Part shown: one piece after another, positions 27-24,017 of the stretch
Layout: every line of letters starts with the position of its first letter
Numbering within the stretch: position 1 is the first letter of the stretch
NCBI GenBank assembly: GCA_008932965.1
Contig: WBXG01000021.1
Coordinates: forward strand, 1-26,460
From: Verrucomicrobiota bacterium
GTDB taxonomy: Bacteria > Verrucomicrobiota > Verrucomicrobiia > Chthoniobacterales > UBA6821
Reading direction: 5' to 3'
Length of the DNA: 26,460 nucleotides
Program-made: the position numbers and the translations under genes
The notes under the pieces: generated by a model
The model's database searches: none
What the model was told of the DNA's origin: nothing
What the model saw: only the letters and a program-made list of their open reading frames with translations

Positions 27-141
27 TAAACAAAATATTTCCTACCCATCGTGATGAGGAGGCCGCGAAGGCTCATGGGGCAAGGTGCGTGAGTACTTTG
101 ACGCTGGGCTGCATCAGATTCTCTACTCTCCAACTCAAAAG
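27..141 (+). repeat. Copy B of the palindromic MITE-like repeat family. It is a truncated long form: degenerate terminal repeat, left arm and central hairpin. The right arm is absent and the copy abuts the 3' end of tRNA-Thr.
   Basis: GTGATGAGGAGGCCGCGAAGGCTCATGGGGCAAGG starting at nt 51 aligns with GTGACGAGGAGGCCGCGAAGGCTGATGGGGTAAGG at 2217 in the glnD copy (about 28/30 over the first 30 nt, about 70% after that). Similarity to the central region of the long form (CTCAAATCAAAATGTGAG versus CCAACTCAAAAGTGGAG) continues to within a few nt of the tRNA end. The terminal repeat is degenerate (TAAACAAAATATTTCCTACCCATCG). Confidence 0.6.
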
Positions 142-217
142 TGGAGCCGGCAGTCGGACTCGAACCGACGACCGGCTGATTACAAATCAGCTGCTCTACC
201 AACTGAGCTATGCCGGC
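142..217 (-). tRNA. tRNA-Thr (anticodon UGU), 76 nt with encoded CCA
   Basis: The minus strand reads GCCGGCA-TA-GCTC-AGTTGGTA-GAGC-A-GCTGA-TTTGTAA-TCAGC-CGGTC-GTCGG-TTCGAGT-CCGAC-TGCCGGC-T-CCA. It has a 7-bp acceptor stem, 4-bp D stem, 5-bp anticodon stem with a 7-nt loop (anticodon TGT) and a T arm containing GGTTCGAGTCC. Confidence 0.92.
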
Positions 218-297
218 TTTTACCAAGATTGAATCTTAGCAGGTTGAGAAGCCTTTCATAAACCCCGTTGGCGTGCAAGAACATAGTTTAACCCGTT

Positions 298-3234
298 TTA
301 TCTATTCCTTTTGACTCCATCTTTCTTTATTTCCTGAGGAATGGAATATTCCTTTAAAATTGCTCTTAACAATCGCTGATGAAGCACGGCAAGCGTCTCT
401 TTATCAGTCACTTTTTTTTCATGAGATCCTAGAATATAAAATGTATCAAATGCTGCCCTCATTTCTGTAGCAATTCGGGCACAGTTAATAGAAATGTCGT
501 GATAATGGAGTGCTCCTACTAAATCATAAAAGAGGCCCTCTCGATCTGCTGTCTCTACTTCAACGAGGGTATGACTCGGATGTGATTGATTATCGATGAA
601 TAAATACGAAGGGCCCATCGTATCGTTCTGATTTAGGGATTCGATATTATCCAAAGGAGAGAAGTTCTTATCAAAACGATCTTGAAGCTTATGACTCTGA
701 AGTTTTAAAAGTTCTTGCAGCTTTTTCTCCATTATTTTTTTTTCTTTCTCAGTTAACATGGGGTCAGCACGAACACTAGTAACCCGAAAAATATCCAGGG
801 TAAGCTGATCCTGACGTGTAAAAATATCAGCACTGAGAATATTAATTCCTGCTGCAAGAAATGCTGCAGCATAACGTTCTAGTAATTGCTCTCGATCCCA
901 TCCACATATAGAAACTTCGGTATAACCAGATTCCCTGTTCTCTTTCCACTCAATTTCTGCAGCAAGGGAGTGCCACTGTGGAGCGTTGGTGTGCATTCGC
1001 TGTTCAAAAAATGAGCGAAATAACTGCAGGTGATCCTTGATGCGTGAAGGTTCTATCGTCTTGAAATAGCGTTCTGGCATCTGTTTGAAATGAACCTCAA
1101 TTTCTTGCCCGAAATCCTCTGGTACCATTTGTTGAACTATTCTTTTTATAGCATCACGATCGTGGTGGTTTTTCTCAAAAAATGTTTTTCCTAATTCTAT
1201 ATATCTCTTTGTTTGATCATAGAGACTCCACACAAGTTGCTCTTTCCAGTCACTCCAGTGAGCATCACTTGCCCCCATTCCATCGGCTAATGTTAGAATG
1301 ATCAGTGAGTCAAGTAGGGATACTGTTTTGATCTTCTTAGCAAAATTGATGATTGTTGCAGTATCGTCCAAATCACGTGACCGAGCAACCGTTGCTAATT
1401 CGGCGTGAAATTTGACCAAGGTAATTAATAAATTTGAGCGCTCCTCAGAAAGTTCTAATCGTAATGCAACTTTTTTTGCTAGCTCTACACTGGCAAGAGC
1501 ATGATGTGAGACATTAGCTCCCTTCCCTGTGTCATGAAGTAACATTGCAAGATACAGCATGGAAGGATCATCAAGGTTTTTAAATAACTTGCTATAACGA
1601 ACTAATTTTTTGTTTGTTGTAAAAAGAAGCGAATCAATTTTTTCAAGACAGACCAGTGTATGTTCATCAGCTGTGTAGAGATGATAAAATTCATGTTGAA
1701 CTAAGCAGGTCAACGTACCAAATTCAGGAATATATTTTCCTAAAAATCCCAGATCATGCATCCTACGAAGAATAGGCCCTACATCCCCTTTTCTCGATAG
1801 AATGGTTAAAAAGATAGTGCTTATCTCCTTTGATTTTTGAAATCGTGGACTGATTTTTGAAAGGTTCCTCTTTATAAGATCGTTTAATTCAGAGGAAAAT
1901 TGAAGAGAGCCTACTTGTGCAATCTGAAAAGATTTCATCATACGCTCCGGATCTGAAAAGATTCTGGGATTTTCTGGAAACAGGACTCCTTCCCTAATGA
2001 CAAACCCAGAGAGTTTTTCTTCTTTCTTTTTTTTCTTTGAATAGGAACCTAATTTTCCTGTTTCTTTTTCGTTAAGAGGAGGTTGCAGGCGAGCGAGCAC
2101 GGCAGATGTAATTAGATAAATTTCACGTGTAATTTCATAATAATTTTTCATGAAGGCTTCACTCCTTCGAATCATACTCTGCTGTGTGTAACCTAGCCCG
2201 GATGTTTCATACTGATCGTGACGAGGAGGCCGCGAAGGCTGATGGGGTAAGGCAGGCGAGCATTTTGATGCAGGGCTGTATGTGTACATACTGCTCAAAT
2301 CAAAATGTGAGTCTAACGCAGCATCCATCTGACTTCCCGGCTTCCGTAGTAGATCAGTATGAAACATCCGGGCTAGCTTGGTTGCAACTTTTCCCTGCAG
2401 GCGCAGTGTCAATTGATCCTGAACTCTTTTCTCCTGGTAGTGCATTTCATGACGTACTTTTAGAAGAAAATCGTAATTCTTCTCTAGTTTTTTTCTTTCT
2501 TTCTCTGTAAGAAACTTTCTTTTGGTTAAATATTTAAGTTGCGACTTTGAACCATGGAAAATAGAAATCCATAGAAGATTTTGATAGTCACGAAGTCCTC
2601 CGGTTCCTAATTTTATATGTGGTTCCTGCATAAATACACTTGTACCATAGCGTTCTCGGAGTTTTCTAATATTCTCAATCCTCCATTGGATATAATTTTT
2701 TTCTTGTCCAAGGATACAGATTTTCCGGAATTTTTTTTTAAATATGTTAAATATCTTTTTTTCTCCGGTAAGAAAACGACATTCCAACACTGCTGTTTTG
2801 AAAAGCATCTCTTGATTCGCATAGGTAAATACTTCCTCTAACGAACGAGTTGAGTGTCCTACTCTAAAATCAAGATCCCATAAGGTCATTAAAATGGAGC
2901 TAATGAGCTGTTCACTTTCAGGAAGCAATTCTTTTTCCTCATATAAAAACATAATATCAATATCGCTATAGGGATTCATTTCACCTCGTCCATATCCTCC
3001 AATAGCGACAACCGACAGTCCTTGAGCAAATTTTTTTTTCTTCCCAATAAAAAAAATAAAAATACTTTTTAATAAAATATCAATGAGGTCTGAGCGTTTT
3101 TGCGCAACTTTTCTTCCACTTTCACCTTTACTATGGAGCTGATAGAGTTCCTTCTCTCGATAGTGATAAATTTTTTTTATCTGTTCTAGAGATAATTCTT
3201 CATGAAGATTTCTTTTTTTGAAAACTGATTTCAT
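298..3234 (-). CDS. glnD: Bifunctional [protein-PII] uridylyltransferase/uridylyl-removing enzyme GlnD, carrying a 60-aa in-frame insertion derived from a repeat element
   Basis: NTase motif VAIGGYGRGEMNPYSDIDIMFLY. GGLRDYQNLLWI motif. HD domain (FYHLYTADEHTL, LLHDTGKG). Two C-terminal ACT-like domains (TEVSICGWDREQLLERYAAAFLAAGINILSADIF and TLVEVETADREGLFYDLVGALHYHDISINCARI). The ORF-track start at 3276 is a TTG that overlaps the upstream gene. The first ATG (MKSVFKK) is at 3234, 13 nt after the upstream stop and directly preceded by GGAAGAGG. Confidence 0.88.
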   Translation of the reverse strand: MKSVFKKRNLHEELSLEQIKKIYHYREKELYQLHSKGESGRKVAQKRSDLIDILLKSIFIFFIGKKKKFAQGLSVVAIGGYGRGEMNPYSDIDIMFLYEEKELLPESEQLISSILMTLWDLDFRVGHSTRSLEEVFTYANQEMLFKTAVLECRFLTGEKKIFNIFKKKFRKICILGQEKNYIQWRIENIRKLRERYGTSVFMQEPHIKLGTGGLRDYQNLLWISIFHGSKSQLKYLTKRKFLTEKERKKLEKNYDFLLKVRHEMHYQEKRVQDQLTLRLQGKVATKLARMFHTDLLRKPGSQMDAALDSHFDLSSMYTYSPASKCSPALPHQPSRPPRHDQYETSGLGYTQQSMIRRSEAFMKNYYEITREIYLITSAVLARLQPPLNEKETGKLGSYSKKKKKEEKLSGFVIREGVLFPENPRIFSDPERMMKSFQIAQVGSLQFSSELNDLIKRNLSKISPRFQKSKEISTIFLTILSRKGDVGPILRRMHDLGFLGKYIPEFGTLTCLVQHEFYHLYTADEHTLVCLEKIDSLLFTTNKKLVRYSKLFKNLDDPSMLYLAMLLHDTGKGANVSHHALASVELAKKVALRLELSEERSNLLITLVKFHAELATVARSRDLDDTATIINFAKKIKTVSLLDSLIILTLADGMGASDAHWSDWKEQLVWSLYDQTKRYIELGKTFFEKNHHDRDAIKRIVQQMVPEDFGQEIEVHFKQMPERYFKTIEPSRIKDHLQLFRSFFEQRMHTNAPQWHSLAAEIEWKENRESGYTEVSICGWDREQLLERYAAAFLAAGINILSADIFTRQDQLTLDIFRVTSVRADPMLTEKEKKIMEKKLQELLKLQSHKLQDRFDKNFSPLDNIESLNQNDTMGPSYLFIDNQSHPSHTLVEVETADREGLFYDLVGALHYHDISINCARIATEMRAAFDTFYILGSHEKKVTDKETLAVLHQRLLRAILKEYSIPQEIKKDGVKRNR
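2194..2375 (+). mobile_element. Copy A, the full-length long form of the palindromic MITE-like element: 178 bp (2196-2373) flanked by TA on both sides, located inside the glnD coding sequence
   Basis: Perfect 23-bp terminal inverted repeats AGCCCGGATGTTTCATACTGATC (2195-2217) and GATCAGTATGAAACATCCGGGCT (2352-2374). TA at 2194-2195 and 2374-2375. Internal arms are partly complementary. The central hairpin is CATTTTGAT...ATCAAAATG around GTATGT-GT-ACATAC. Homologous copies occur at seven other places in the window. Confidence 0.85.
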
Positions 3235-3247
3235 CCTCTTCCGTATT

Positions 3248-4171: not shown

Positions 4172-4457
4172 TTCTATGGTGACTCTAAATCAATTCACAT
4201 TCTCTATGAGGTTTAAATTCTTTTAAATTCTAACTCATCATAATAATAAAGTGAATAAATTCATACTATATTGATAACTAGCTTGCAAATCTGTATGTTA
4301 AGATTTTTAAATGCGTTAATAAGCCTCTTTATTATTAAAGAATAACTTGGTAAAGTGGGGCTACCCTTGTTCCATAGAACAAATTGTTATAACACTATAA
4401 CATCTATTCACACTTTATTATCACACTTATTGGTCTTTTTAAAAAAAGAACTATGTT

Positions 4458-6317: not shown

Positions 6318-6325
6318 ATTGTCTT

Positions 6326-6393
6326 TAAGGGGTTAGTTATTTTCATCAAATTATCTGCGGAAGCTGGGAAACCAGTATGAAATATGCAGGTTA
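6326..6393 (-). repeat. Copy C1 of the repeat family, a mini form of about 68 bp
   Basis: The right terminal repeat ACCAGTATGAAATATGCAGGTTA is well conserved. The internal TCTGCGGAAGCTGGGAA matches the arm CTGCGGAAGTCGGGAAG of copy E. The left terminal repeat is degenerate (GGTTAGTTATTTTCATCAAATTA). Confidence 0.55.
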
Positions 6394-6447
6394 GACCCCT
6401 AGCTTTGAGGCCCCCCTCGCTACGATTAGTAGGAAACATCCGAGTTA
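6394..6447 (-). repeat. Copy C2 of the repeat family, a single-arm fragment adjacent to C1
   Basis: TTGAGGCCCCCCTCGCTACGATTAGTAGGAAACATCCGAGTTA aligns with the reverse complement of the left arm of copy A (CGCGGCCTCCTCGTCACGATCAGTATGAAACATCCGGGCTA). Confidence 0.55.
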
Positions 6448-6518
6448 ATAATCTCATTTTAGGATAATTTATAATTATTTTTGACGACAAATTCTAAGAG
6501 AGCGATTAATATGACCCG

Positions 6519-7904
6519 ATGGCGATAATTCCTTATGATCTTGTTGTAATTGGTGGTGGTCCAGCTGGCTACGTGGGTGCAATCAGGGCTGCTCATCTCG
6601 GTAAAAAAGTGGCTGTTGTAGAAAAAGAGCGCGCTGGAGGAACTTGTCTCAATTGGGGCTGCATTCCAACAAAGTCACTCTTACGTAATGCGGAAATCTT
6701 CTCACTGATGAAGCTTCATGCTGATGACTTTGGGCTTAGCTTTTCAGAGCTTGATTACGACTGGACAAAGGTCATCGGGCGCTCCCGTAAAGTTGCTGAT
6801 AAATTAGCAGGAGGGATCGAGTTTCTACTCAAAAAGAATAAAATAGATTATATTCTTGGTGAAGCTACGATTCCAAAGTCAGGGCAGGTTCATGTGCAAA
6901 AATTGGATAGCACTGAAGTGCAATTAGCTGCTCCTAAAATTCTCATTTGTACTGGTGTCACAACACGTGAGATGCCAGGATTTCCGATGAATGGAACCTC
7001 GGTAATTGGGAGTCGTCAGGCTATGGCACTGCCCACACAGCCAAAAGAAATTATTATTATTGGTGCAGGAGCTATTGGAATTGAGTTTGCTTACTTCTTT
7101 AATGCCTTTGGTACAAAAGTAACTGTTATTGAAATGATGCCACATATTTTGCCGGTAGAAGATACCGAGGTGAGTGTGGCACTCGAAAAGGTGCTAACCA
7201 AAAAAGGAATTAATTTTTTAACCTCCACGCAAGTAGAAAAAATAGAAGCAAGTTCAGAGCGTGTTTCAATTACGATTTCTGGAAAAAAGAATGAAACCCT
7301 TTCTGCTGATGTAGCTCTTGTTGCTATTGGAGTGACTTCACTTTTACCAGGGGGAATGACCTTCAAGCTCGATCCCAAAGGATATTTGGCTGTCAATGAT
7401 AACTACGAAACAAATGTTCCTGGTGTTTATGGAGCGGGAGATATTATTGGTCCTCCTTGGCTTGCTCATGTTGCTAGCTGGGAAGCCATACAAGCAGTTG
7501 AAGGAATCTTTGGAAAAAGAAAACCCCAACGCAGGCGCGTTTTTCCTGGATGTACATACTGTCAGCCCCAAGTCGCTAGTGTGGGCCTCACAGAGCGAGC
7601 TGCTAAAGAGAAAGGAATGAATGTTAAGGTGGGAAAATTTCCTTTCCAAGCAAGTGGTAAGGCTCAGGCGATGGGAGAAACAGAGGGTTTTGTGAAGCTT
7701 CTTTTCAATGAGCCCCATGGTGAAATCGTAGGTGCCCACATCATCGGCTCGGAGGCAACTGAAATGATCGCAGAGCTTGGACTAGCTATTACCCTAGAGG
7801 CAACCTATGAAGATATTGCTAGCACCATCCATGCCCATCCTACCTTGAGTGAAGCAGTCATGGAAGCAACTGAGGCCACCCACGGAAATGCGATTCATAT
7901 TTAA
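6519..7904 (+). CDS. lpdA: Dihydrolipoyl dehydrogenase (E3 component, pyridine nucleotide-disulfide oxidoreductase)
   Basis: 461 aa. FAD-binding motif VVIGGGPAGY. Redox-active disulfide GGTCLNWGCIPTK. NAD-binding motif IIIGAGAIGIEFA. GDIIGPPWLAHVA. C-terminal dimerisation motif with HAHPTLSE. Confidence 0.9.
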   Translation: MAIIPYDLVVIGGGPAGYVGAIRAAHLGKKVAVVEKERAGGTCLNWGCIPTKSLLRNAEIFSLMKLHADDFGLSFSELDYDWTKVIGRSRKVADKLAGGIEFLLKKNKIDYILGEATIPKSGQVHVQKLDSTEVQLAAPKILICTGVTTREMPGFPMNGTSVIGSRQAMALPTQPKEIIIIGAGAIGIEFAYFFNAFGTKVTVIEMMPHILPVEDTEVSVALEKVLTKKGINFLTSTQVEKIEASSERVSITISGKKNETLSADVALVAIGVTSLLPGGMTFKLDPKGYLAVNDNYETNVPGVYGAGDIIGPPWLAHVASWEAIQAVEGIFGKRKPQRRRVFPGCTYCQPQVASVGLTERAAKEKGMNVKVGKFPFQASGKAQAMGETEGFVKLLFNEPHGEIVGAHIIGSEATEMIAELGLAITLEATYEDIASTIHAHPTLSEAVMEATEATHGNAIHI

Positions 7905-7908
7905 AATA

Positions 7909-7980
7909 GGACTGAAAATTTCTAACTTCTCGGTGCTATCATTCCTGCCTTACTAAAATGAGTATGAAATATTAGGGCTA
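7909..7980. repeat. Copy D of the repeat family, a degenerate mini form
   Basis: The right end TTCCTGCCTTACTAAAATGAGTATGAAATATTAGGGCTA parallels TTCCCGGCTTCCGTAGTAGATCAGTATGAAACATCCGGGCTA of copy A. The left end GACTGAAAATTTCTAACTTCTCGG matches the terminal repeat only weakly. Confidence 0.4.
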
Positions 7981-7999
7981 ATCCCAAAAGCATTCCTTC

Positions 8000-8368: not shown

Positions 8369-8371
8369 ATT

Positions 8372-8734: not shown

Positions 8735-8766
8735 GGTCGATGTAAAAAGAAAGATAGGGGATCGCC

Positions 8767-8871
8767 TAAACCCGGATATTTCATACCGATTCTGCTGCGG
8801 AAGTCGGGAAGTCAGATGGATACTGCGTTGATCTCGAAGTCTTCCTCGGGCAGTATGAAACCACCAGTGAT
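8767..8871 (-). mobile_element. Copy E of the repeat family, about 105 bp, inverted relative to copy A, with the central region deleted
   Basis: TAAACCCGGATATTTCATACCGATTCTGCTGCGGAAGTCGGGAAGTCAGATGGATACTGCGTT aligns nearly base for base with the reverse complement of the right arm of copy A (TAGCCCGGATGTTTCATACTGATCTACTACGGAAGCCGGGAAGTCAGATGGATGCTGCGTT). The far end, GGCAGTATGAAACCACCAGTG, is a degenerate terminal repeat. Confidence 0.75.
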
Positions 8872-8881
8872 TAATCAGCAC

Positions 8882-13265: not shown

Positions 13266-13332
13266 AAAAGATTCAAAGGGACCAATCATCTTTTCTTAGT
13301 ATAGTGGGGGGTTAAATTGATGTAAATGTGCT

Positions 13333-13440
13333 TAACCCGCATATTTCATACTGGTTCGTCGCGAGGAGCCGCGAATCCTGACGCAGCATCCATCAGGTGT
13401 TCGCAAGCTGCAGCAGAATCGGCATGAAATATCCAGGTTA
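13333..13440 (+). mobile_element. Copy F of the repeat family, 108 bp including TA flanks, same orientation as copy A, with the central region deleted
   Basis: TAACCCGCATATTTCATACTGGTTCGTCGCGAGGAGCCGCGAATCCTG-ACGCAGCATCCATCAGGTGTTCGCAAGCTGCAGCAGAATCGGCATGAAATATCCAGGTTA. Both terminal repeats and both arms align with copy A. TA is present at both ends. Confidence 0.85.
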
Positions 13441-13460
13441 ATGCAGTCATAAAGCTACAG

Positions 13461-14138: not shown

Positions 14139-14142
14139 AATT

Positions 14143-15210: not shown

Positions 15211-15214
15211 ACTT

Positions 15215-16348
15215 TTAGGATTTCAAAACTCTTGCAGCGAATTCATGATAATTTTTTTGGAATTGATCTCGTGTATGAACTTTTCTCACGTGCTCATAGG
15301 AAGCCTTTGCACGCTGTTGAACTTCTTCATCAGGCAGCGCAGCAAAGGCTCTTGCCGTTTCCATGACCGCTTCAACGGTTCCGCTCTTAATGAGCATACC
15401 AAAATCATTCAAATCGACAGAAGCTTCATAAGTACAGAGGGGCACCATACCCGCATGCATGCAGTGAATCACGCTCCCACCACCACCTTCAGAGCATGAT
15501 GGATAAATCGTGGAAGCATGCGTTCTTGCTATCTCCTTAAATTCTAAAGAAGCCATATCCACCCAGCCTCGTGCATGAATATTGGGTGTATGAAGTAATT
15601 CCTTTTCATAGAGCCGGAAAAAATCTGGTTCCTTTTCAGGACGAGCGCAAATCGTGAGTGATAATTCTGGCATCTGAGCAAAAGCCTCCAAGACAAGATC
15701 GAGACCTTTGTGCACCATGCCATAACTTGCAACCCATAAAAAATTTTTCTTTTTTTCTGTAAAATTCCGTTCTTGAGGCCACTCGAATTCATAAGCTGAG
15801 GAAATCGGAATGCGCGTGATTGGTTTCTTCGCAAAAGCAAAACTGTTCATGGTGTATTTATTTCCTAATACCACAATTTCATCCTCCCCTCCATTATCAG
15901 GAGGATGCGTGTGCCTCCGTGATCTCAATACCACACCCTTACGATCACGAATAGCAGCAAGTCGTGCAAGCTCTGCTTGATTGGCTAAAAGCCAGTGTGC
16001 TGCTGTGGCATGGGTGATTCGCTTGCAGGTCTTAGGCAAATAAGCATCCCATCGCTCAAATTGCCCCTCTATGTCAATTGCAATACATGTATCACTTGGA
16101 GGAACATAAGTGCGATTGTGATATTCGATAACATCAACAGCATATCCAAGCTTTCGATATGTTTCTGCTATCGTCACCACTTCAAAAGCATTGGTGTGAC
16201 CACGTGCTTTTGGTGAATTCCACCCCTCTTTAAAAGGCCAAAAAATATAACCCAAAACAACTCTCCCTCGAGAAGGCCTTTGTGTCAACAAACGAACCTC
16301 AGGCAACCGCTTTTTGTGATCAAAAATTTTTTTAATGTAGAAAAACAT
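15215..16348 (-). CDS. GT-B fold glycosyltransferase (GT4-like)
   Basis: 377 aa. FLWVASYGMVHKGLDLVLEAF then IYPSCSEGGGGSVIHCMHAGMVPLCT resembles the Glycos_transf_1 nucleotide-sugar binding region. The N-terminal half is divergent. Confidence 0.6.
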   Translation of the reverse strand: MFFYIKKIFDHKKRLPEVRLLTQRPSRGRVVLGYIFWPFKEGWNSPKARGHTNAFEVVTIAETYRKLGYAVDVIEYHNRTYVPPSDTCIAIDIEGQFERWDAYLPKTCKRITHATAAHWLLANQAELARLAAIRDRKGVVLRSRRHTHPPDNGGEDEIVVLGNKYTMNSFAFAKKPITRIPISSAYEFEWPQERNFTEKKKNFLWVASYGMVHKGLDLVLEAFAQMPELSLTICARPEKEPDFFRLYEKELLHTPNIHARGWVDMASLEFKEIARTHASTIYPSCSEGGGGSVIHCMHAGMVPLCTYEASVDLNDFGMLIKSGTVEAVMETARAFAALPDEEVQQRAKASYEHVRKVHTRDQFQKNYHEFAARVLKS

Positions 16349-16351
16349 AAA

Positions 16352-17272
16352 TTAGGCTTTTTTTAAAACTCTCCGTTTTGTCATACTTAGTCCATAGAAA
16401 AAAGACGCACTTACCCATTTGCTCCAAGTTAGCTTCTCTTTTCCTCTTAAACTCAATTTTATGCCATTAATTTTTTGAACCCAAAAGTCCATTTGCAATA
16501 CGAAAAGGTTTTGTTGTTTAGTCTGAAGTTCTAAAAGGTTCTTTTTTAAAAAATCTAAGGTGACTTCGTCGTAATGCTCGACCAACAAGATAGGTAAGGC
16601 CTCAAAAGGCTCTAAAACAGAAGACCTCAGAGCAATTGGATAAGAACCTAAAGCAAGCGCTTCCCAAAGTCGATGGGTGTCTATCCCATTTCCTGGAGGC
16701 GCCAAGACAAAACGATGTCGCTTCAATTGCGTTAAAAATTCCTTATTACCGCCATGATTACTGGGTAGATCACAAGTGATCCAATGTTCTTGTTGAGCAC
16801 GCACTTTAAAAGAATCATAAATTCTTTGTCGCACTGCAGGATTCGTTTCAGGACGAAAGTTGATGTACAGCCATTGGTCTCTTGAAATATCGAATTTCTG
16901 AGAATCAATATTTAATGTCACAGGATCTTCAACGCCTCCCAACCCCAGCGGCAAGGCCGTCACCTTCGGATGCGGATGTGTGACATTAGATGCAAACCAT
17001 CGCTCTACATTCAGCGGCAAAAATTGCTGCCTAAAAAAATCGCAGGGAACATCACTCTCTCCTGTTACCAAAACAATACGTTTCCGCGTTAATCTCAAAT
17101 ACTCAAACAATCGTAGCACTTCATCCGTTTTACAAAAAACAATGTCACCAGCTTTGAAATGAGTGTTGGCATAAGGATGAAAATTACTCCAATAAGTGTT
17201 ATCACATGCTTTTTCAAAAAGATCACATCTGACTAGAGCTTCGGATGGAAACGTGTTTTGAAAAGCGATCAT
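16352..17272 (-). CDS. Exostosin-like (GT47-like) glycosyltransferase
   Basis: 306 aa. RHRFVLAPPGNGIDTHRLWEALALGSYPIAL matches the exostosin-family C-terminal motif (F.L.P.G.g.d..Rl.Eal..G.iP). Confidence 0.55.
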   Translation of the reverse strand: MIAFQNTFPSEALVRCDLFEKACDNTYWSNFHPYANTHFKAGDIVFCKTDEVLRLFEYLRLTRKRIVLVTGESDVPCDFFRQQFLPLNVERWFASNVTHPHPKVTALPLGLGGVEDPVTLNIDSQKFDISRDQWLYINFRPETNPAVRQRIYDSFKVRAQQEHWITCDLPSNHGGNKEFLTQLKRHRFVLAPPGNGIDTHRLWEALALGSYPIALRSSVLEPFEALPILLVEHYDEVTLDFLKKNLLELQTKQQNLFVLQMDFWVQKINGIKLSLRGKEKLTWSKWVSASFFYGLSMTKRRVLKKA

Positions 17273-17293
17273 GTTGATGCTTGCAGCCTGAAG

Positions 17294-17439
17294 TAGCTGC
17301 AGAAGAAGTGAAGATTGAAGAGTATCTTTAAGATCAAAACAGAATTTTTATTTTTGAATATTATACCTGACAAGATGTGTTTTAAGTAAACTTTTTTCAG
17401 AAAACTTCAGTTAATTACTCTTCACTCTTAACTGCAGCC
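17294..17439. repeat. Imperfect inverted repeat flanking a spacer of about 90 bp (AT-rich by eye) inside the glycan operon
   Basis: Left arm AGCTGCAGAAGAAGTGAAGATTGAAGAGTA (17294-17323). Right arm TACTCTTCACTCTTAACTGCAGCC (17416-17439). About 20 of 24 positions pair, with a 5-nt bulge. TGCAGCCTG is directly repeated at 17282-17290 and 17432-17440. Confidence 0.5.
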
Positions 17440-17445
17440 TGCTGC

Positions 17446-18327
17446 TCACCAATACCCCCCTCCCTCAATCTCTTGCCAGCCAATAGGCCGCTCTTCTTCT
17501 AGAGGAGGAGACCATGCCGCATTCATTAATTTTTGAAACTTGGGATTGCCTCTCCAACGTCCACCACTAATTCCAAAAAACAATTGTGTTGCCCCTCCCA
17601 AATGAATGGCAATTTTTCCCATTTTTTTGATCATTGCTCCAAGCGGTAGTCCATAAGCACCGCATCCCAAGATAGCGACATCAAAACTTTCATTTTGAAC
17701 TTTTTTTTCTAAGAGCGTGAGTGCCTCAAACCACGAGGCGTATTCTATTTTATTATCGGGCACTGTTTGCGGCGCCTTCATGAGTTTCAACGTAAATTCA
17801 GGAAGCATTTTAGGATTACTAAAAATTTTTTCTCGAACAGTTGAGTATTGTTTTTCTATCGATGCTGTAAAAGGGTGGACCACAAGAACAGTTTTTCCTT
17901 CAAGCTGCTGCGACCAGGGATCGTCAAAAAAATAAGGCTCTAATGCTGGAAGTTCCGCTAATTTTGATTTTTTAGCGTACACTTTAATAAGCCATCCATG
18001 AAAAGGAGCATCCATGAGCCCGAAAAGGTCAGCATGAGCAATGGCATCCGAATAAGTAGCAGCAAATTTTTGGAGATGATCAGAGGTCATGGGAAATACT
18101 CCTGCTGGCGATCTTAACATCTTCTGCTCTTTTTCTGAAAGTGTTCCATCAAGCAAAATTTTTCCAGTACAATATCCTTCCACCCATCCTATGCGCCCAA
18201 TTAATGCAGGAGCATTTGTTTGAAGAATCTTAGCAATAGATTGATTGCACTCGTCTGGTGACAGCGTTGGAACAACCTTAATAGCAGCTTTCCGATTAAT
18301 ATAAAATTGACGCACTCTGTGAATCAT
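17446..18327 (-). CDS. Hypothetical glycan-locus protein, possibly a GT-D/DUF1792-like glycosyltransferase
   Basis: Long ORF. Segments LIGRIGWVEG, GKTVLVVHPFTASIEKQY and FDVAILGCGAYGLPLGAMIKKMGKIAIHLGGATQLFFGI loosely recall the DUF1792 layout. The assignment is tentative. The ORF-track start at 18381 is a TTG. The first ATG is at 18327 and still overlaps the upstream gene by 32 nt. Confidence 0.5.
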   Translation of the reverse strand: MIHRVRQFYINRKAAIKVVPTLSPDECNQSIAKILQTNAPALIGRIGWVEGYCTGKILLDGTLSEKEQKMLRSPAGVFPMTSDHLQKFAATYSDAIAHADLFGLMDAPFHGWLIKVYAKKSKLAELPALEPYFFDDPWSQQLEGKTVLVVHPFTASIEKQYSTVREKIFSNPKMLPEFTLKLMKAPQTVPDNKIEYASWFEALTLLEKKVQNESFDVAILGCGAYGLPLGAMIKKMGKIAIHLGGATQLFFGISGGRWRGNPKFQKLMNAAWSPPLEEERPIGWQEIEGGGYW

Positions 18328-19288
18328 AGAATTTTTTTTTAAAAAAACGCCATTGCCGCTGCTGCATCCAATATCGAACAATCATATTTCTCAAACTCCA
18401 AAATAAACGCTCTGGAATTTTTTGATGTTGTTGGATGTCCAAAATTTGATCAATGACATAATCAAAATAGACCTCATCTGCAAAAAATGTTTGATAAGCC
18501 TCGTGCGCCTTTTTTCCCATGTCGACATAGTCTTTTTCTCGTTGCTCAAGAATTTCATCCAGTTGATCCAAGTCTTTTTCTTTAACAATCACAGCAAACT
18601 CATCCCACTTGGGTCCTCGAGGCAAGATCCAGTCATCAGAAATAATCACAGGTGCCACTCCCATTTTCATCACTTCAAAAAGCCTAATGGAAGCACCACT
18701 GGTTCCCTTAGGACAAAGTGCAAATTTTGAAGCAGTCATGATTTCACAATATTTCTGCTGCTGCGGCAAGTGATCTTCTTTTCTGCTATGCGCATTAAAA
18801 TAGGAAGTTGAGTTTGCTACGAGCACATCATTCCTACTGGACTTTCTTTGAAATAATTGAAGACGAAGGGGAGAGCTGTCTTGACCAACAAATGAGTAGA
18901 AAAAAAATTTTGGCGAGGAGTAAGACTTGCCTGTGCACTGAGCAACAAATGGATTATGAACTTCCTTGGGGAAAAGATTGTAGGCCCCTGTTCTAAAACG
19001 GGACTGAAATTTTAAGCGCTTGTTGTTGGAAGTGTAAATACCATGCAACAGCGGCATCGGAATATCTCCATCAGCAACGACAAAGCACTTGCTAGGATCT
19101 ATAATATTTTCATTCTTGCGAAGATCCTCAAACCAATTTGGCCCACTAATATCACTAAGCAGAACAAGATCAGCTTCTTCAGCTTGCTGACACAGAGAAT
19201 GTTTTTGTGATGATAACATCCAAAGCTCTCTTAGCCTTTCATGCTGATATACCTTATCAGATGAAGCGCTGGTTAAAAAAATTTTCAT
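18296..19288 (-). CDS. Exostosin-family (GT47-like) glycosyltransferase
   Basis: 330 aa. SKFALCPKGTSGASIRLFEVMKMGVAPVIISDDWILP is a clear exostosin C-terminal motif. Confidence 0.72.
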   Translation of the reverse strand: MKIFLTSASSDKVYQHERLRELWMLSSQKHSLCQQAEEADLVLLSDISGPNWFEDLRKNENIIDPSKCFVVADGDIPMPLLHGIYTSNNKRLKFQSRFRTGAYNLFPKEVHNPFVAQCTGKSYSSPKFFFYSFVGQDSSPLRLQLFQRKSSRNDVLVANSTSYFNAHSRKEDHLPQQQKYCEIMTASKFALCPKGTSGASIRLFEVMKMGVAPVIISDDWILPRGPKWDEFAVIVKEKDLDQLDEILEQREKDYVDMGKKAHEAYQTFFADEVYFDYVIDQILDIQQHQKIPERLFWSLRNMIVRYWMQQRQWRFFKKKFYDSQSASILY

Positions 19289-19296
19289 TTCAATTG

Positions 19297-20085
19297 TTAC
19301 AAAAGTTGAAACTTAAAAATTCCTAACGCATATTTTTGGCATGCTAAAAATGCTATGTCTTTTGAGATATCCTTTGATTCTACGAGATCTCCTGCACTTA
19401 ATTTATCTCTTGTCAAAAAAGCAAAACTTTTTAACTCAAGCCCCAATTGCCCTGCCTCTTCAACAATGGTTTGAGGATTAAAAATACGATGCGCATTAAA
19501 GCAAACGCGTTCTGCTCCAATCGGTGTGGAAAGCCAAAGGGTTCCTCCTGGCGTTAGTATTTTTTTCAAACTCTCTAAACCTAACTTCCATCCTTCATCG
19601 TTGATTTGATCTCCATATCTTCCCAAGCCAAAATGCTCTAGCGTGTGCAAACAGGTCACACAATCGGCAACGTTTTCCCATTGTTGAGGCAAGTGAAAGA
19701 GATCGACTTGATGAAAAAGGACTCTTTCCACACAAATTGGAATTGGTCGAATATCCAGAACTTCGACATCTCGAGTGCATGCCAAATGAGCGATAAAGCC
19801 ATCTAGTCGAGAACCAACATCAATATGCTTTACGGGTGCAGCTTCAATAATTTTTTTCGCAACCCAAAGATCTTGCCAAAAATATTCGCCATGATTGCCC
19901 CCTTCCTCAAACCGATCTAATAATTTAGGATCGAAAATAATAGGCCATGAAGTTTGAGAGCGAAACTGTTTTAAAGATCTTAAATACCATGGCAAAGAAG
20001 TTATAGCTTTGATCATTCTTGCAGGCTGGCATTGGAGAGCTCCTAAAAGAAGCGACGCTTTAAATAGATAATATTTTAAGGACAT
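19297..20085 (-). CDS. Class I SAM-dependent methyltransferase-like protein (DUF268-like)
   Basis: 262 aa. HIDVGSRLDGFIAHLA (motif I-like), VEVLDIRP, DCVTCLHTLEHFGLGRYGD and LKKILTPGGTLWLSTPIG follow a methyltransferase-fold layout. The start ATG shares one nt with the upstream stop (TAATG). Confidence 0.65.
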   Translation of the reverse strand: MSLKYYLFKASLLLGALQCQPARMIKAITSLPWYLRSLKQFRSQTSWPIIFDPKLLDRFEEGGNHGEYFWQDLWVAKKIIEAAPVKHIDVGSRLDGFIAHLACTRDVEVLDIRPIPICVERVLFHQVDLFHLPQQWENVADCVTCLHTLEHFGLGRYGDQINDEGWKLGLESLKKILTPGGTLWLSTPIGAERVCFNAHRIFNPQTIVEEAGQLGLELKSFAFLTRDKLSAGDLVESKDISKDIAFLACQKYALGIFKFQLL

Positions 20086-20966
20086 TAGTTAATTTGAGAT
20101 AAGGCTTCTGCAACTTGAAAATCAGACCATTCCAAAGGTATGTTTTTATTTTGAATTATTCCTTGAGGAATGTTGTATAGAAAACTGGGCCATGAACTAA
20201 AAGTACTTTTTGGAGAAATAATATAATCACAAAGCTGAAGCAATGCTTGATCAACACCAATGGATTGATTTTCAAAAAACTCAAAAGGAAGTCCTTCAAA
20301 ATCTTGAAGGTTAATTTTTTCCTTAGTGATAAGCACAAAAGCAATAGTTCCTGAGCCTTGATGCGTTGCTAACAAATTTCTCATAGAGGCCGCATAAACC
20401 GCCTCTTCAAAATAATAAATCCCTCCTGCAAAAATTTTGTAGTCACCTTGTCGAATATGGACTGCAACAATTTTGTTTTTCTGAGAGGCAATCCCAGCTT
20501 GATTTAAAAGAGTTTGGGCTGTTTTAAGATATTTTGATTTCAGTCGAAAAATTCCTTGTAGCCTTTCTTTCATTTGTTCCTCTATTCCACCACACCAAAA
20601 AAAGAAACTTCCTTTTGTAAATAGCAATATTCGCCGAGAAGTCTCATTCATGACTTTTTCCAATCGCGAAAATTCTATAACTTTCGCTTTGTCTTGCTCC
20701 GGTGTGACCCTCCAAGAAATAACTCGCGGTGATACAGAAAGTTTTTTTTCTATTTTTTTAAGCCTTTGATTGTTGAGTAACCGAAGTGCCACAAAAAAAA
20801 GTGCCACAAAAAAATTTCTAGGGGCGTATAAGTAGCTGTATTGAAAAAAAGTTAAATCGAATAAGTAATACTTTTCTCTTTGCGCAAATGAAAAAAAACG
20901 AGCAAATCTAAAAAGGCGATTTCCAAGTTCTCCGTACTTTTCGGTGATAATAATAACTTTTTTCAA
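20085..20966 (-). CDS. Glycosyltransferase family 11-like (alpha-1,2-fucosyltransferase-like)
   Basis: 293 aa. N-terminal GELGNRLFRFA, VAVHIRQGDY (the HxRRGDY-type motif) and ISPKSTFSSWPSFL (STFSwW-type motif). The TTG start overlaps the upstream TGA (TTGA). Confidence 0.65.
   Translation of the reverse strand: MKKVIIITEKYGELGNRLFRFARFFSFAQREKYYLFDLTFFQYSYLYAPRNFFVALFFVALRLLNNQRLKKIEKKLSVSPRVISWRVTPEQDKAKVIEFSRLEKVMNETSRRILLFTKGSFFFWCGGIEEQMKERLQGIFRLKSKYLKTAQTLLNQAGIASQKNKIVAVHIRQGDYKIFAGGIYYFEEAVYAASMRNLLATHQGSGTIAFVLITKEKINLQDFEGLPFEFFENQSIGVDQALLQLCDYIISPKSTFSSWPSFLYNIPQGIIQNKNIPLEWSDFQVAEALSQIN
20786..20815. repeat. In-frame 15-bp tandem duplication inside the GT11-like gene
   Basis: GTGCCACAAAAAAAA (20786-20800) followed by GTGCCACAAAAAAAT (20801-20815). 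It encodes FFVAL-FFVAL on the minus strand. Confidence 0.85.
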
Positions 20967-21805
20967 AAGGGAATTTTGGACTTAATCCGCTTTATAAATC
21001 TGCTTAAAAAATTTTCTGAAGATTTTTTTTTCATCCAAGAACAGTGCCATAAATGACAACATATTGTATTGGCTTGAAAATAAGATTCCATCTTTCCCCC
21101 AAGAACTCTATCTCGAGGAAAATTAGGTAATGGATAAAAATAAGAATTAGGAAAAGCAACGATTGTATCCATGCTGGGAAGACATTTAAAAAATGCCCTT
21201 GTTGTATGATGCGGTCCAGTAGAGTCAATAATTTGCATCGCATCACCACTTAAAACTCCTTTTCGGAAATTCAAAAGTTCGCTAATCAAAGGATTATTAG
21301 GAGAAGACCCTATAATAGAGTTCGATAAATTAGGCTTTTGATCGTATACAATCCCAGCAAAAAAATCGCATCCTCTTAGCTCATCCAATGGTTTTACGAT
21401 AAAAAAATCTAAATCCAAATAGATACCGCCATATTTTTTAAGAATTTCACACCTCAAAATGTCTGACTTCTGACCCAAGTTAGATGCTTGATCAAAAACA
21501 TCCCTGTTTTCTAATTCAAAATCGATATTATCATTATTCCAAAGTTTGTACTCCCAGTCAGGATGGATCTGCTTTAATTTGCTCACAAAGTTTTGGCAAT
21601 TTTCCGGAGGATTTTCTCCTAACCATATTTGGTGAATGATTTTTGGTATTAATTCCTTTTTGTTGTTTTTGGCTCGAAAGGCTTCATATGACTTTTGAAG
21701 CAAATCCCATTGCTCCCGATTAATGCGATTCTGATATCCATGAGAAAACTTCATGGATGCATTAAACTCATTCTCGATACTCATTATATTATCTGCCATA
21801 AACAT
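20963..21805 (-). CDS. Glycosyltransferase with DXD sugar-binding region (GT32 / Gly_transf_sug type)
   Basis: 280 aa. IPKIIHQIWLGENPPE, HPDWEYKLWN and KSDILRCEILKKYGGIYLDLDF are typical of GT32. Alternative ATG starts lie at 21799 and 21784; the last removes the overlap with wzt. Confidence 0.72.
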   Translation of the reverse strand: MFMADNIMSIENEFNASMKFSHGYQNRINREQWDLLQKSYEAFRAKNNKKELIPKIIHQIWLGENPPENCQNFVSKLKQIHPDWEYKLWNNDNIDFELENRDVFDQASNLGQKSDILRCEILKKYGGIYLDLDFFIVKPLDELRGCDFFAGIVYDQKPNLSNSIIGSSPNNPLISELLNFRKGVLSGDAMQIIDSTGPHHTTRAFFKCLPSMDTIVAFPNSYFYPLPNFPRDRVLGGKMESYFQANTICCHLWHCSWMKKKSSENFLSRFIKRIKSKIPF

Positions 21806-22988
21806 TATTAAAACTTGTTACCGTCATGAGTTCTCGTTCATTAATTTTAAATTTTTTGATGGCTCCATCTGGATAAATTACCCACGATTCAAATGCGCCT
21901 GCTTTCATTAACCGGTCAATATTATTTTGAGCTTCAGCCTCTGTTCTATCTTTAGAAATAATAGAAATCACAATGTCAGGAGACCCACTCCATGTTGGTT
22001 CTGTTCGCATTGTTTTCATTCTTACTTGAGAAATCCAACCAATATCAATCGTAATAATTCCTTCTGTTGTTTCAATGGGAGTATTAAAAACTAATTCTCC
22101 ATCTGGAAGTTCTTGTAACAAATGTTTAGCAAGCAGTCCTACTTGAATCCCAACTCTACTATCAGGAACTCCCGGAATATAATTTTCAGCATGCGAAAGA
22201 TGAAGTGATTCTAAATATTTCGCTGTCGCTTCACGCGCCGTCCCATGAGCAACAAGCCGGCCTTCTTGCAAAAGGACACCATGGGTGCAGAGCTCCAGGA
22301 CACTTTGTGCGGAGTGACTCACAAAAAGAACGGTTGTCCCTGAGTCACGAATTTCAATGATGCGGTTGAGGCATTTTTCTTGAAATTTAGCATCCCCAAC
22401 CGCCAAAACTTCATCGAGGATCAAAATCTCAGGCTCTAAGTGCGCTGCCACTGCAAAAGCAAGTCGCACGCGCATCCCACTCGAATAGCGCTTCACCGGC
22501 GTCTCCATAAAATCAGGGATCTCGGCAAATTCCACAATGCGACCGTAGCGATCATTTATCTCTTTTTGCTTCAATCCAAGAATGCTTCCATTGAGATAAA
22601 CGTTTTCTTTTCCTGTCAGATCATAATTAAAACCGGTGCCAACTTCGAGCAAGCTGGCAATACGTCCTCGAATCGAGATTCTACCTTCTGTTGGCGCTGT
22701 GATGCGCGAAAGAAGTTTGAGCAGTGTCGATTTTCCAGAACCATTCCTTCCCATGATACCAACAACATCACCTTTTTTAATTTCTAAATTAATATCTTGA
22801 AGCGCCCAGAAATCATAAGGCGTCGGCATGCGATCTGTCTGATGATCAAAAACAGAGGCGTGTGGATCGGGTCGTCGCAATTTGCGAGCCACCCAACTTT
22901 CAATCTGATCGACAAGCATCTGCCTGCTGATAACGCCGAGCCGATATTTTTTTGACAAACTCTCTATTTTGATGACGACATCGTTCAT
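21789..22988 (-). CDS. wzt: Polysaccharide/O-antigen ABC exporter ATP-binding protein (Wzt/TagH type) with a C-terminal extension of about 135 aa
   Basis: Walker A GRNGSGKST, signature YSSGMRVRLAFAVA, Walker B ILILDEVLAVGD, H-loop FVSHS. The ATG at 22988 (MNDVVIKIESLSKKY) lies 5 nt after the wzm stop. The ORF-track start at 23012 is an overlapping TTG. Confidence 0.88.
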   Translation of the reverse strand: MNDVVIKIESLSKKYRLGVISRQMLVDQIESWVARKLRRPDPHASVFDHQTDRMPTPYDFWALQDINLEIKKGDVVGIMGRNGSGKSTLLKLLSRITAPTEGRISIRGRIASLLEVGTGFNYDLTGKENVYLNGSILGLKQKEINDRYGRIVEFAEIPDFMETPVKRYSSGMRVRLAFAVAAHLEPEILILDEVLAVGDAKFQEKCLNRIIEIRDSGTTVLFVSHSAQSVLELCTHGVLLQEGRLVAHGTAREATAKYLESLHLSHAENYIPGVPDSRVGIQVGLLAKHLLQELPDGELVFNTPIETTEGIITIDIGWISQVRMKTMRTEPTWSGSPDIVISIISKDRTEAEAQNNIDRLMKAGAFESWVIYPDGAIKKFKINERELMTVTSFNNVYGR

Positions 22989-22993
22989 ATAAA

Positions 22994-23881
22994 TTATAAA
23001 ATATCGACGCAATGTCGTTCGGTTTTATTAAACAAAAGCACTCCCACAAAAATTGTAATAATGCTTACAACAAAACTGATTGAAACTTCAAAAAGCGTGA
23101 CAGTTCCCTGCCCCATGAAGGCATAACGAAAAGCCTCGATGACCGAAACCATCGGATTCAGCAAATAAAGCGTACGAATTAGGCCCTCAGGAACAAGACT
23201 CAGAGGATAAACAACACAACTTCCATACATCCAAAGTTGGATAAAAAATCCGAGGAGAATTTGAAGATCCCGAAAGCGTGTGGTAATAGCAGAGATAAAG
23301 CAACCTACTCCGAGTCCGAGTGCTCCCATTTGTATCAATAAAATGGGAAGAACGATCACACGCCATCCCATGCTAATGGGTGCACCATGCCATGTATACC
23401 AAAGATAAAACCCAAGAAATAAGGCTAGCTGCATGCCGAATCCCACCAGGTTCACAATGAGCTGGGAGATGGGGACAACGAGCCTTGGAAAATAGACTTT
23501 GTCAAAGAGCGAGCTATTGGAAAGAAAGGTGGAGGCAGTTCCTGTCACACAGGCTGAAAAATAACTCCAACAAACCGTTCCTCCCATAAAGAAAAGGATA
23601 GGTGGAATCACTCCCGTAGAGATCCTTGCAATGTTAGAAAAAACGAGGGTGAACATCAGGCTTGTGAAGAGCGGTTGCATGATATACCAAAGCGATCCAA
23701 AAAAAGTCTGCTTATAGCGCGAGACGTAATCGCGATGAACCATGCGCATGATGAGCTCACGGTATTCCCAAATTTCCTTCCAGGGAATATGAAAAAGGTT
23801 CACACGAGGTACTATGATCGTCGTCCATGCTTCTTGATTGGAGTGTGTGGTTGTCGGATGAGAGGTCAAAATAGTTTTCAA
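22994..23881 (-). CDS. wzm: Polysaccharide/O-antigen ABC exporter permease (Wzm, ABC-2 type)
   Basis: 295 aa. WEYRELIMRMVHRDYVSRYKQTFFGSLWYIMQPLF is the typical ABC-2 N-terminal motif, followed by about six hydrophobic segments. The start is uncertain: TTG at 23881, with no in-frame ATG before residue 45. Confidence 0.85.
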   Translation of the reverse strand: MKTILTSHPTTTHSNQEAWTTIIVPRVNLFHIPWKEIWEYRELIMRMVHRDYVSRYKQTFFGSLWYIMQPLFTSLMFTLVFSNIARISTGVIPPILFFMGGTVCWSYFSACVTGTASTFLSNSSLFDKVYFPRLVVPISQLIVNLVGFGMQLALFLGFYLWYTWHGAPISMGWRVIVLPILLIQMGALGLGVGCFISAITTRFRDLQILLGFFIQLWMYGSCVVYPLSLVPEGLIRTLYLLNPMVSVIEAFRYAFMGQGTVTLFEVSISFVVSIITIFVGVLLFNKTERHCVDIL

Positions 23882-23940
23882 TGAGTGAAGTGAAAATGAG
23901 TTACGATTCTATCATCAAAGGGCAACGTCTGAAAAGGAGT

Positions 23941-24017
23941 TAACCCGGATATTTCATACTGATCGTTACGAGGAGGCTTCCCGGCTTCTGTTGGTAATCA
24001 GCATGCGATATCCAAGT
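23941..24017 (+). mobile_element. Copy G of the repeat family, a 77-bp mini form in the divergent wzm/GT2 promoter region
   Basis: TAACCCGGATATTTCATACTGATCGTTACGAGGAGGC joined directly to TTCCCGGCTTCTGTTGGTAATCAGCATGCGATATCCAAGTT. The left terminal repeat matches the family consensus and the right one is diverged. Confidence 0.8.

Follow-up and report, generated by a model that had tools for sequence, protein, structure and literature searches.

Which kind of element are the short palindromic repeats dispersed over contig WBXG01000021.1 (GCA_008932965.1) of Chthoniobacterales UBA6821, and how has one of them come to lie inside the gene for GlnD ([protein-PII] uridylyltransferase) with the reading frame still open? 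The DNA analysed, called the window here, is the whole 26,460-nt stretch of this contig. An initial annotation had described eight copies or fragments in it as a high-density, non-autonomous family with terminal inverted repeats (TIRs), and this is supported: the family at the eight loci is real according to terminal-repeat matches, to a profile hidden Markov model (HMM) matching seven of the eight, and to synteny for the copy at 7909-7980. The family is very probably a transposase-mobilised, non-autonomous element, i.e., a MITE (miniature inverted-repeat transposable element), with in-frame insertions in coding sequences. Overlooked in the earlier reading was that the full-length copy is an in-frame insertion of 60 codons inside glnD.

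The full-length element is located at 2193..2376 on the plus strand, with a core of 176 bp (2197-2372) and the tetranucleotide CTAG duplicated at 2193-2196 and 2373-2376. As the unit 2194-2375, it is the sole complete copy in the window and is 93% identical to the family consensus. The gene glnD (298..3234, minus strand) has an open ORF (open reading frame) of 978 aa, including the 60-aa element segment LARMFHTDLLRKPGSQMDAALDSHFDLSSMYTYSPASKCSPALPHQPSRPPRHDQYETSGL. Because core and duplication together make 180 bp, or 60 codons, and their frame is open, the GlnD reading frame is unbroken. The protein gains LARMFHTDLL...QYETSGL, and the peptides spanning the insert junctions are HTDLLRKPGSQMDAALDSHFDL and QYETSGLGYTQQS.

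Mobility is shown by an empty site at strain level. Contigs L096, L097, and L098 stem from other samples and match the window at 98.6-99.5% identity over 13 kb; they are without exactly 180 bp at 2197-2376, and the remaining seven of the eight copies are common to both. The filled site of the window reads GTAAC-CTAG-[176 bp]-CTAG-CTTGG, and the empty site of the three contigs reads GTAAC-CTAG-CTTGG. The mobility expected in the initial annotation is therefore borne out, with CTAG and not TA as the duplicated sequence. At the protein level, P0001 and six GlnD orthologues of greater distance show a gap of exactly 60 aa at the insert. Since GlnD orthologues at 46-73% identity are all without the 60 residues, the site was empty ancestrally, and the insertion in the window allele is recent. 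Polymorphism is seen in more distant genomes as well: a full copy at L019 7641-7822 of the metagenome-assembled genome (MAG) from Tobar has no counterpart in the window, and the Kiruna MAG is without the window's glnD insertion (CTAA stands there) and bears a copy of its own at another place in glnD. The other seven copies of the window are older intergenic copies, shared between strains and decaying by truncation and independent internal deletions.

The length of the target duplication was derived from the copies in related genomes. The 182-bp copy, counting TA at each end, was used as nhmmer query against 653 kb of related contigs, which represent at least five Verrucomicrobiota MAGs, and 323 matches in 227 intervals were obtained, about 106 of them full length and 65 exactly 182 bp long; confinement of the repeats to the window loci is thus ruled out. 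In the 182-bp unit, conservation is only about 50% at positions 3 and 180, compared with more than 90% at their neighbours, and these two positions co-vary with the base of the outside flank as a direct repeat. The flanking tetranucleotides are identical in 48 of 64 exact-length copies (TTAA 30, CTAG 16, and TTAG 2) and in 56 of 100 TIR-bounded elements (TTAA 31, CTAG 18, CTAA 5, and TTAG 2), and the non-palindromic flanks (seven pairs) are direct repeats, never inverted. A duplication of TA with a variable, inherited terminal base would predict mixed pairs, with TTAG on the left and CTAA on the right, but neither TTAG/CTAA nor CTAA/TTAG is among the tabulated pair classes of the 64 copies of exactly 182 bp. 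Because the flanks co-vary as direct repeats, the element proper is 176 bp long and the duplication 4 bp. The TA that was previously taken for the duplicated target is the centre of this tetranucleotide, in the glnD copy (CTAG at the positions given above) as well as in the copy at 13332..13441, where TTAA is intact at 13332-13335 and 13438-13441. All identical duplications (TTAA, CTAG, CTAA, and TTAG) fit YTAR. Compared with the genomic background, TTAA is enriched 1.5-fold and CTAG 2.1-fold, and CTAA and TTAG are depleted (0.4-fold and 0.1-fold, respectively; chi-square p about 1e-6). The target duplication is 4 bp long, and its sequences are mostly the palindromes TTAA and CTAG.

The core begins with its 21-bp TIR CCCGGATATTTCATACTGATC and ends with GATCAGTATGAAATATCCGGG (CCCGG...CCGGG). 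At a size of 176 bp, the element is without transposase coding capacity, and its sole open frame encodes the 60-aa peptide. The terminal 21-24 nt of the full window copy are 96% complementary (inverted pair I4), and the TIR is conserved across subfamilies A, B, and C. Alignments agree with the initial description of two distinct but related arms and, when made to the consensus, of copies in both orientations. The two halves pair imperfectly with each other, so that one long hairpin is formed by a single strand; the consensus folds in this way at -106 kcal/mol with RNA parameters. The DNA hairpin of the copy 2194-2375 has -54.2 kcal/mol and z = -10.4 versus shuffled sequence, and that of 13333-13440 has z = -2.2. 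The remaining six copies (z from -1.0 to +0.8) fold no better than shuffled sequences, so that the hairpin once ascribed to every copy exists only in the least decayed ones. The central region is kept, as had been stated, only by 2194-2375 and 27-141, and the full form has a core of 176 bp instead of the 178 bp given for it.

At least three subfamilies are recognised, with a common TIR and different arms. The copy at 13333-13440 has an alignment score of 119.8 to the consensus of subfamily B versus 83.2 to that of the main subfamily A, and the copy at 8767-8871 fits both equally (scores of 97.8 and 98.6). With one short form B-like and another equally close to A and B, the short forms are not one nested series, and their breakpoints are unrelated to one another in the alignment to the consensus. 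Of the nested-deletion series previously proposed, the internal deletions as such do exist, the copy at 23941-24017 being positions 1-34 joined to 138-182, but the short forms are separate, independently decayed remnants of at least two subfamilies. TIR-bounded elements in the related genomes are overwhelmingly full length (the core is exactly 176 bp in 49 of 100 and within 174-182 bp in about 70), and the short forms of the window are best read as decay products and not as short subfamilies that propagate.

Larger forms occur outside the window. One or two extra modules of about 85-96 bp, with hairpins of their own, bring some copies to lengths of 257-282 bp or 359-374 bp; such copies are L075 5010-5273, L056 5367-5624, L016 6174-6445, L065 7268-7539, L055 2864-3231, and L068 1069-1442. 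The modules run TTGACTCGCTCGC...GGCAGTCTCCCC...CCGCCGGTGGT and have no match in Rfam. As 57 of 60 module matches lie at most 120 bp from an arm of the MITE, the modules seem to be almost exclusively cargo or nested inserts of the family. On three metagenome contigs with G+C content of 51-55%, an element of about 178 bp (L102 4681-4858, L104 19-196, and L107 1-178) shares the 21-bp terminal repeat and the tetranucleotide-type flanks of the family, but its interior is unrelated (CTGCCGCTCGTGCGGCGCAAG...). The TIR, and presumably the transposase too, is therefore shared beyond the lineage of the window with its G+C content of 40%. A 429-bp copy at L089 5558-5986 has a nested insert of about 160 bp with its own short inverted repeats (GACTTCTTTGAAAACTC / GAGTTTTGAAAGAAGTC), which points to another small mobile element in these genomes, unrelated to the first.

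The coding property of the glnD copy is common in the family. In the consensus, the frame that starts with YTA (Leu) and continues with ACC or GCC and CGG is free of stop codons in both orientations, and the other two frames of each strand have two to six stops. This frame (frame 3) is open in 49 of 65 copies per strand, the other frames in 0 of 65; shuffled copies are open in 4%. An insertion in frame at Leu (YTA) thus adds a 60-residue peptide (L-[T/A]R[I/M]FHTD ... QYE[I/T]SG-L), and the protein is not truncated. On the related contigs, 28 of 106 full-length copies are inside ORFs continuing for 50 codons or more to each side (15 of 106 at a threshold of 100 codons), and the 28 are divided between the two orientations as 14 and 14. 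Examples of hosts are a 1022-aa protein with three copies and a PriA-like helicase. Among 1.84 billion representative proteins searched exhaustively, 130 were found with the element peptide; most of these are short spurious ORFs on intergenic copies, and several are long hosts, such as a protein in which the insert splits an aldose-1-epimerase domain. A peptide search of a word-indexed protein database returned only 21 short spurious ORFs. The long peptide-matching proteins that were examined are host enzymes or proteins without any Pfam family.

Two side effects on gene calling were seen. Gene callers output many "hypothetical proteins" of 60-140 aa that are translated copies (P0121-P0141 and most of P0142-P0271). 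In P0222 (576 aa), a Vut_1 vitamin-transporter domain and an FtsX permease domain are joined via an element segment (residues 339-400); a copy in a spacer can bridge two ORFs into such an apparent fusion, which is possibly an annotation artefact.

The window GlnD has the Pfam domains GlnD_UR_UTase, HD, and ACT. An AlphaFold2 model computed from an alignment of 48 sequences has a mean confidence (pLDDT) of 80.9 and a predicted template modelling score (pTM) of 0.75. In the model, residues 298-347 of the insert mostly have pLDDT below 50 and no secondary structure, and the flanking helices (277-295 and 354-383) are confident. The 60-residue insert is accordingly predicted to be a disordered loop that would leave the remaining fold unaffected. 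In Kiruna_bin-02438, the glnD copy at L014 3867-4054 is inserted in frame, in the opposite orientation, into the linker between the ACT domains (LARIFHTDRDD...QYEISGL), and a 155-bp copy at 6420-6576 of the same contig stands at the ompA-glnD junction or at the N-terminus. The glnD ORF of this MAG has 1027 aa versus about 918 aa for a typical GlnD. Its insertion site in the linker corresponds to residues 856-873 of the window GlnD model, a linker which is of low confidence already. As the window and Kiruna insertions are at separate sites, glnD was hit independently at least two times.

TIRs, a duplication of fixed length, and empty sites are together the signature of a transposase-mobilised non-autonomous element. 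Of the features by which MITEs are recognised, small size without transposase coding, TIRs, a fixed 4-bp duplication, and dispersed, polymorphic copies are present. In the proposed mechanism, a transposase supplied in trans would bind the 21-bp terminal repeats, the target would be cut with a 4-bp stagger, preferably at the palindromes TTAA and CTAG, and gap repair would duplicate the target tetranucleotide.

Several observations weigh against a mobile MITE whose coding insertions are tolerated. The Pfam match to GlnD_UR_UTase is interrupted in the window protein, stopping at profile position 108 of 141, exactly at the insert, and the insert-bearing GlnD is only presumably translated and functional. 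Neither does the open frame appear to be maintained in individual copies. The selection test was limited to 33 cleanly aligned copies with 85% or more identity to the consensus; stop codons were observed at 0.39 and 0.27 versus 0.46 and 0.50 in the simulation, and 36% of the copies were open on both strands versus 38% expected. As the stops match random expectation, the open frame is a property of the master sequence, with no sign of copy-by-copy maintenance. Subfamily C (185 bp, net 183 bp) is open in one orientation only. The marked preference for palindromes is unlike the even usage of YTAR that would be expected from a plain IS5-type preference. Finally, a cognate transposase was found neither in the window nor between the inspected TIR pairs of the 653 kb of fragmented related contigs, nor in the checked candidate regions of the metagenome loci with atypical ends.

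The search for the transposase was made in several ways. In the window, no large ORF has a transposase domain, as the initial annotation had noted. TIR pairs 400-4000 bp apart were looked for in 98 loci, and the inspected pairs without an intervening end (L053, L082, and L051) are separate MITEs flanking ordinary genes. Matches to the left-half and right-half HMMs at distances of 300-4000 bp represent nested or tandem MITEs with no transposase, and clustering of multi-copy ORFs across the loci gave orthologues only. "Orphan" TIRs with a different inner sequence belong to the second or third subfamily or are solo ends by trpS, a lolE-like gene, and hppA, again with no transposase. A TIR scan of metagenomes that excluded the known arms yielded at least 12 loci with atypical ends, with no transposase in the inspected candidates. 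As no cognate enzyme was found, the enzymology can be deduced only from the TIRs and the target duplication; DDE-type cut-and-paste chemistry would be in line with these, and the candidate enzymes are IS5-group, IS701, and IS1380/piggyBac-like transposases.

A partner from the IS5 family (IS5-group), making 4-bp duplications at YTAR, is possible and is named here tentatively. IS5 of E. coli makes 4-bp duplications at the motif (C/T)TA(A/G) (PMC5009759). All four tetranucleotides found at the element fit this motif, but CTAA and TTAG are strongly under-used. Besides, the CCCGG termini of the element are unlike the ends of IS5, and close to the copies no transposase of this kind was found.

An IS1380-family, piggyBac-like enzyme, or one of the IS701 family, with a fixed target tetranucleotide and perhaps capable of precise excision, is a rather doubtful partner of the same MITE. 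The most frequent duplication is TTAA, the two preferred sites are palindromic, and the core begins with CCC beside TTAA as piggyBac ends do; the TTAA specificity of piggyBac is described in PMC7351741, and IS1380 transposases are the prokaryotic outgroup of piggyBac (PMC10813416). Against this, CTAG makes up 32% of the sites, no transposase was found, and the likeness is no more than a resemblance. For the IS701 family, a "highly conserved" duplication of exactly 4 bp and the end consensus ---YACT-Y--YR are published (PMC2266710); the length of the duplication agrees with that of the element, but the end consensus does not fit CCCGGATATTTC.

A more far-reaching form of the MITE explanation, which we consider unlikely, would be a transposon adapted to translation. 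In this case, the net length of 60 codons and the frame open in both orientations would have been selected in the master copies, and a piggyBac/IS1380-like enzyme would act on the palindromes TTAA and CTAG, possibly with precise excision. Subfamilies A and B differ in their internal peptides, and both keep the 180-bp periodicity and both open frames, so that selection on master copies for the open frame may be called suggestive from the sequences. A four-fold deficit of stop codons in the first simulation was rejected as confounded by subfamily structure and misregistered copies. If the adaptation is true, the coding 85-90% of a compact genome would become safe landing sites at Leu (YTA) codons, and the family would be a tractable counterpart, in bacteria from freshwater metagenomes, to the Rickettsia palindromic elements (RPEs) for studying how selfish DNA adds loops to proteins.

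It is very improbable that the MITE is moved, as was first suggested, by an IS630/Tc1-mariner-type transposase duplicating TA. TA is central in every duplication, short TIRs are present, and IS630-type elements favour CTAG-like sites; but the flank bases co-vary as a direct-repeated tetranucleotide, by which a TA-only duplication fails, mixed pairs are missing from the classes tabulated for the 64 copies, and no IS630-like ORF was found in the window or in the inspected TIR pairs. IS711 combines a YTAR preference with TA duplication (PMC2266754), and such a pattern is excluded for this family by the same co-variation. Least probable of all, to the point of being negligible, are functional structured RNAs or regulatory palindromes (REP/BIME-like repeats, terminators, or small RNA genes) maintained by selection and spread by recombination or by a RAYT-type enzyme, since the very stable hairpin and the position of most window copies just downstream of genes are outweighed by the lack of any Rfam match up to E 1, the use of both orientations, copies inside coding sequences, the clean 4-bp duplication with its empty site, the decay of most window copies, which no longer fold, and a length of 176 bp with 21-bp TIRs that is unlike that of REPs (20-40 bp; PMC3733652), which are defined as palindromes with a GTAG/CGTC tag and without target duplication.

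The mobile MITE thus remains the preferred explanation, and its distribution was followed further. The exact 20-mer CCCGGATRTTTCATACTGAT was scanned in one genome per species and found in at least 93 stretches; the 93 listed belong without exception to five MAGs with the labels Chthoniobacterales, Spartobacteria, or Verrucomicrobiia. Proteins of the window were found identical on metagenome contigs, and the taxonomically named GlnD homologues are those of Chthoniobacterales or Chthoniobacteraceae. The consensus had no match among plasmids, the TIR none among viral contigs, and the whole element none in Rfam even at E up to 1; literature searches, TIR strings included, gave no description of it. 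The family is apparently undescribed, as the initial annotation had stated, and represents a new MITE family with RPE-like coding behaviour.

Many contigs of MAGs and metagenomes have an end inside a copy of the element (for example, at L083 1-137, L060 1-136, L066 1-135, and L005 2-143, and in L111-L113 at about 23-24 kb of the window), and the family seems to break up short-read assemblies of these genomes. Copies at contig ends, spurious small ORFs, and apparent gene fusions in MAGs are a hazard for annotation and assembly, and recognising the family would improve both in these Verrucomicrobiota lineages.

The remaining copies of the window are described here from left to right. The terminal repeat TAACCCGGATATTTCATACTGATC has five matches in the window at up to three mismatches and none in 100 dinucleotide-preserving shuffles; the more diverged ends were recovered by repeat search (27-63, 6370-6393, 6424-6447, 7957-7980, and 13417-13440). 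The profile HMM, built from related copies, matched 6326-6393 weakly (E about 0.1) and revealed no copies in the window beyond the known loci. The truncated copy at 27..141 (plus strand) corresponds to consensus positions about 1-117, i.e., the left two-thirds, at about 80% identity (HMM match 35-148, E = 1e-16); it is also present in strain L096, and, as one of the six mentioned above, it folds no better than shuffles. It stops exactly at the 3' end of tRNA-Thr(UGU) (142-217, minus strand), which abuts it, and the arrangement is the same in L096. Just past the left edge of the window, L096 has a full-length copy at 13243-13424, 93.5% identical to the glnD copy and situated inside a called 228-aa gene with no Pfam match.

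Two adjoining pieces on the minus strand follow. The 68-bp remnant at 6326..6393 is a terminal repeat joined to right-arm sequence, with a degenerate far end, and lies 9 bp past the stop codon of mnmG; apart from the HMM match, it is based on repeat families D2/D6, inverted pair I6, and the consensus alignment. Next to it, the 54-bp left-arm fragment at 6394..6447 covers consensus positions about 1-55 and terminates in TTAA, as recognised from inverted pair I2 (47 nt at 74% with the full copy's left end), the HMM (E = 1e-3), and the alignment. In the remnant at 7909..7980 (plus strand), only the last 45 bp or so are recognisable, namely, the right terminal repeat and the adjacent arm. The HMM was not significant there; the assignment is based on TIR repeat family D2 (79%), on the alignment, and on a full-length copy in the orthologous lpd|dciA spacer of the Tobar2m-G38 MAG (L019 6294-6476).

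The 105-bp derivative at 8767..8871 (minus strand) lies between folB and a ferredoxin gene and has one intact end, an arm resembling the subfamily-B arm CTGCTGCGG..., and the centre (HMM match 8771-8863, E = 1e-23); the opposite end has degenerated, with an apparent junction at a CATACTG direct repeat. The subfamily-B copy at 13332..13441, to which no strand is assigned, has both terminal repeats intact (inverted pair I13) and a central deletion of about 65-75 bp. The 77-bp internal-deletion form at 23940..24017 (plus strand) sits in the divergent spacer between an ABC-2 permease gene and a GT2 gene; of its consensus parts (1-34 and 138-182), the left end is perfect (zero-mismatch TIR at 23941-23964, with TTAA before it) and the right end is degenerate (HMM E = 6e-9).

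Genes of the window are glnD, an ompA-family gene, mnmG, lpd, dciA, folB, a ferredoxin gene, a heptosyltransferase gene, a chlorite-dismutase-like gene, and a low-GC polysaccharide cluster with an ABC-2 exporter. The cluster (13461-23881, minus strand) includes glycosyltransferase genes of the GT25, GT4, and Exostosin/GT47-like (two) types, DUF268, and a Gly_transf_sug/Caps_synth-type gene, together with an ABC-2 permease and ATPase, and has no element copies inside. Its G+C content is 34% near 20-22 kb versus 40% for the window, so it may be a variable O-antigen or capsule locus. At 9240-11294 (plus strand) there is an ORF of 684 aa with no Pfam match and with 99% identity in the sister strain.

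Among known systems, the Correia elements of Neisseria (CREE/NEMIS) are MITEs about 100-155 bp long that have TIRs, a TA-centred target, copies in the hundreds, and internal-deletion variants; no transposase is known for them. The likeness to the family described here covers all these traits, from the TIR-bearing MITE form to the size variants by internal deletion. The duplication made by Correia elements is TA alone, and these elements lie mostly between genes, where they have promoter or terminator effects, whereas the present family has a 4-bp duplication and a quarter of its full-length copies are inside ORFs. With IS5 and IS5-derived MITEs, the family shares the 4-bp YTAR duplication (PMC5009759), but it prefers palindromic TTAA/CTAG over CTAA/TTAG, its termini are dissimilar, and no IS5-type transposase is linked to its ends. 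As in piggyBac/IS1380, TTAA is the commonest target and termini starting with CCC are directly beside it (PMC10813416 and PMC7351741); the use of CTAG in about a third of insertions sets the family apart, and with no transposase recovered this is a resemblance only. Coxiella QMITE1 and intragenic ERIC/IRU are bacterial MITEs with ORFs and occasional in-frame host fusions (PMC10969869). Their TIRs and duplications are different (QMITE2, for example, has direct repeats of 7-9 bp; PMC10969869), and in its in-frame frequency the present family is nearer to RPEs.

RPEs are singled out among MITEs for unusually frequent in-frame insertion (PMC10969869). They are the textbook oddity of selfish DNA inside coding genes, and their mode of transposition is still unknown. 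Both groups (for RPEs, Ogata et al. 2000/2002 as summarised in PMC10969869) are palindromic repeats of about 100-180 bp, high in copy number; many lie in frame in unrelated housekeeping genes, encode a conserved peptide, and leave the host ORF open. Both are predicted to be placed where the fold tolerates it, here in a predicted disordered loop, and a cognate transposase is known for neither. The hosts differ, being obligate intracellular Alphaproteobacteria for RPEs and Verrucomicrobiota MAGs from freshwater metagenomes for the present family. The latter differs further in its 21-bp TIRs, clean 4-bp TTAA/CTAG duplication, and strain-level empty site, and in a frame that is open in both orientations and used equally in both. 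In behaviour, the element seems closest to RPEs, a likeness drawn from description and not a claim that it belongs to the RPE family. It makes the mechanism accessible by its sharp 21-bp TIRs, its defined TTAA/CTAG duplication, and filled and empty alleles coexisting at about 99% identity, and it adds a concrete case, in which the conserved regulatory enzyme GlnD gains a 60-residue loop in one step and a second species has an independent insertion in the same gene.

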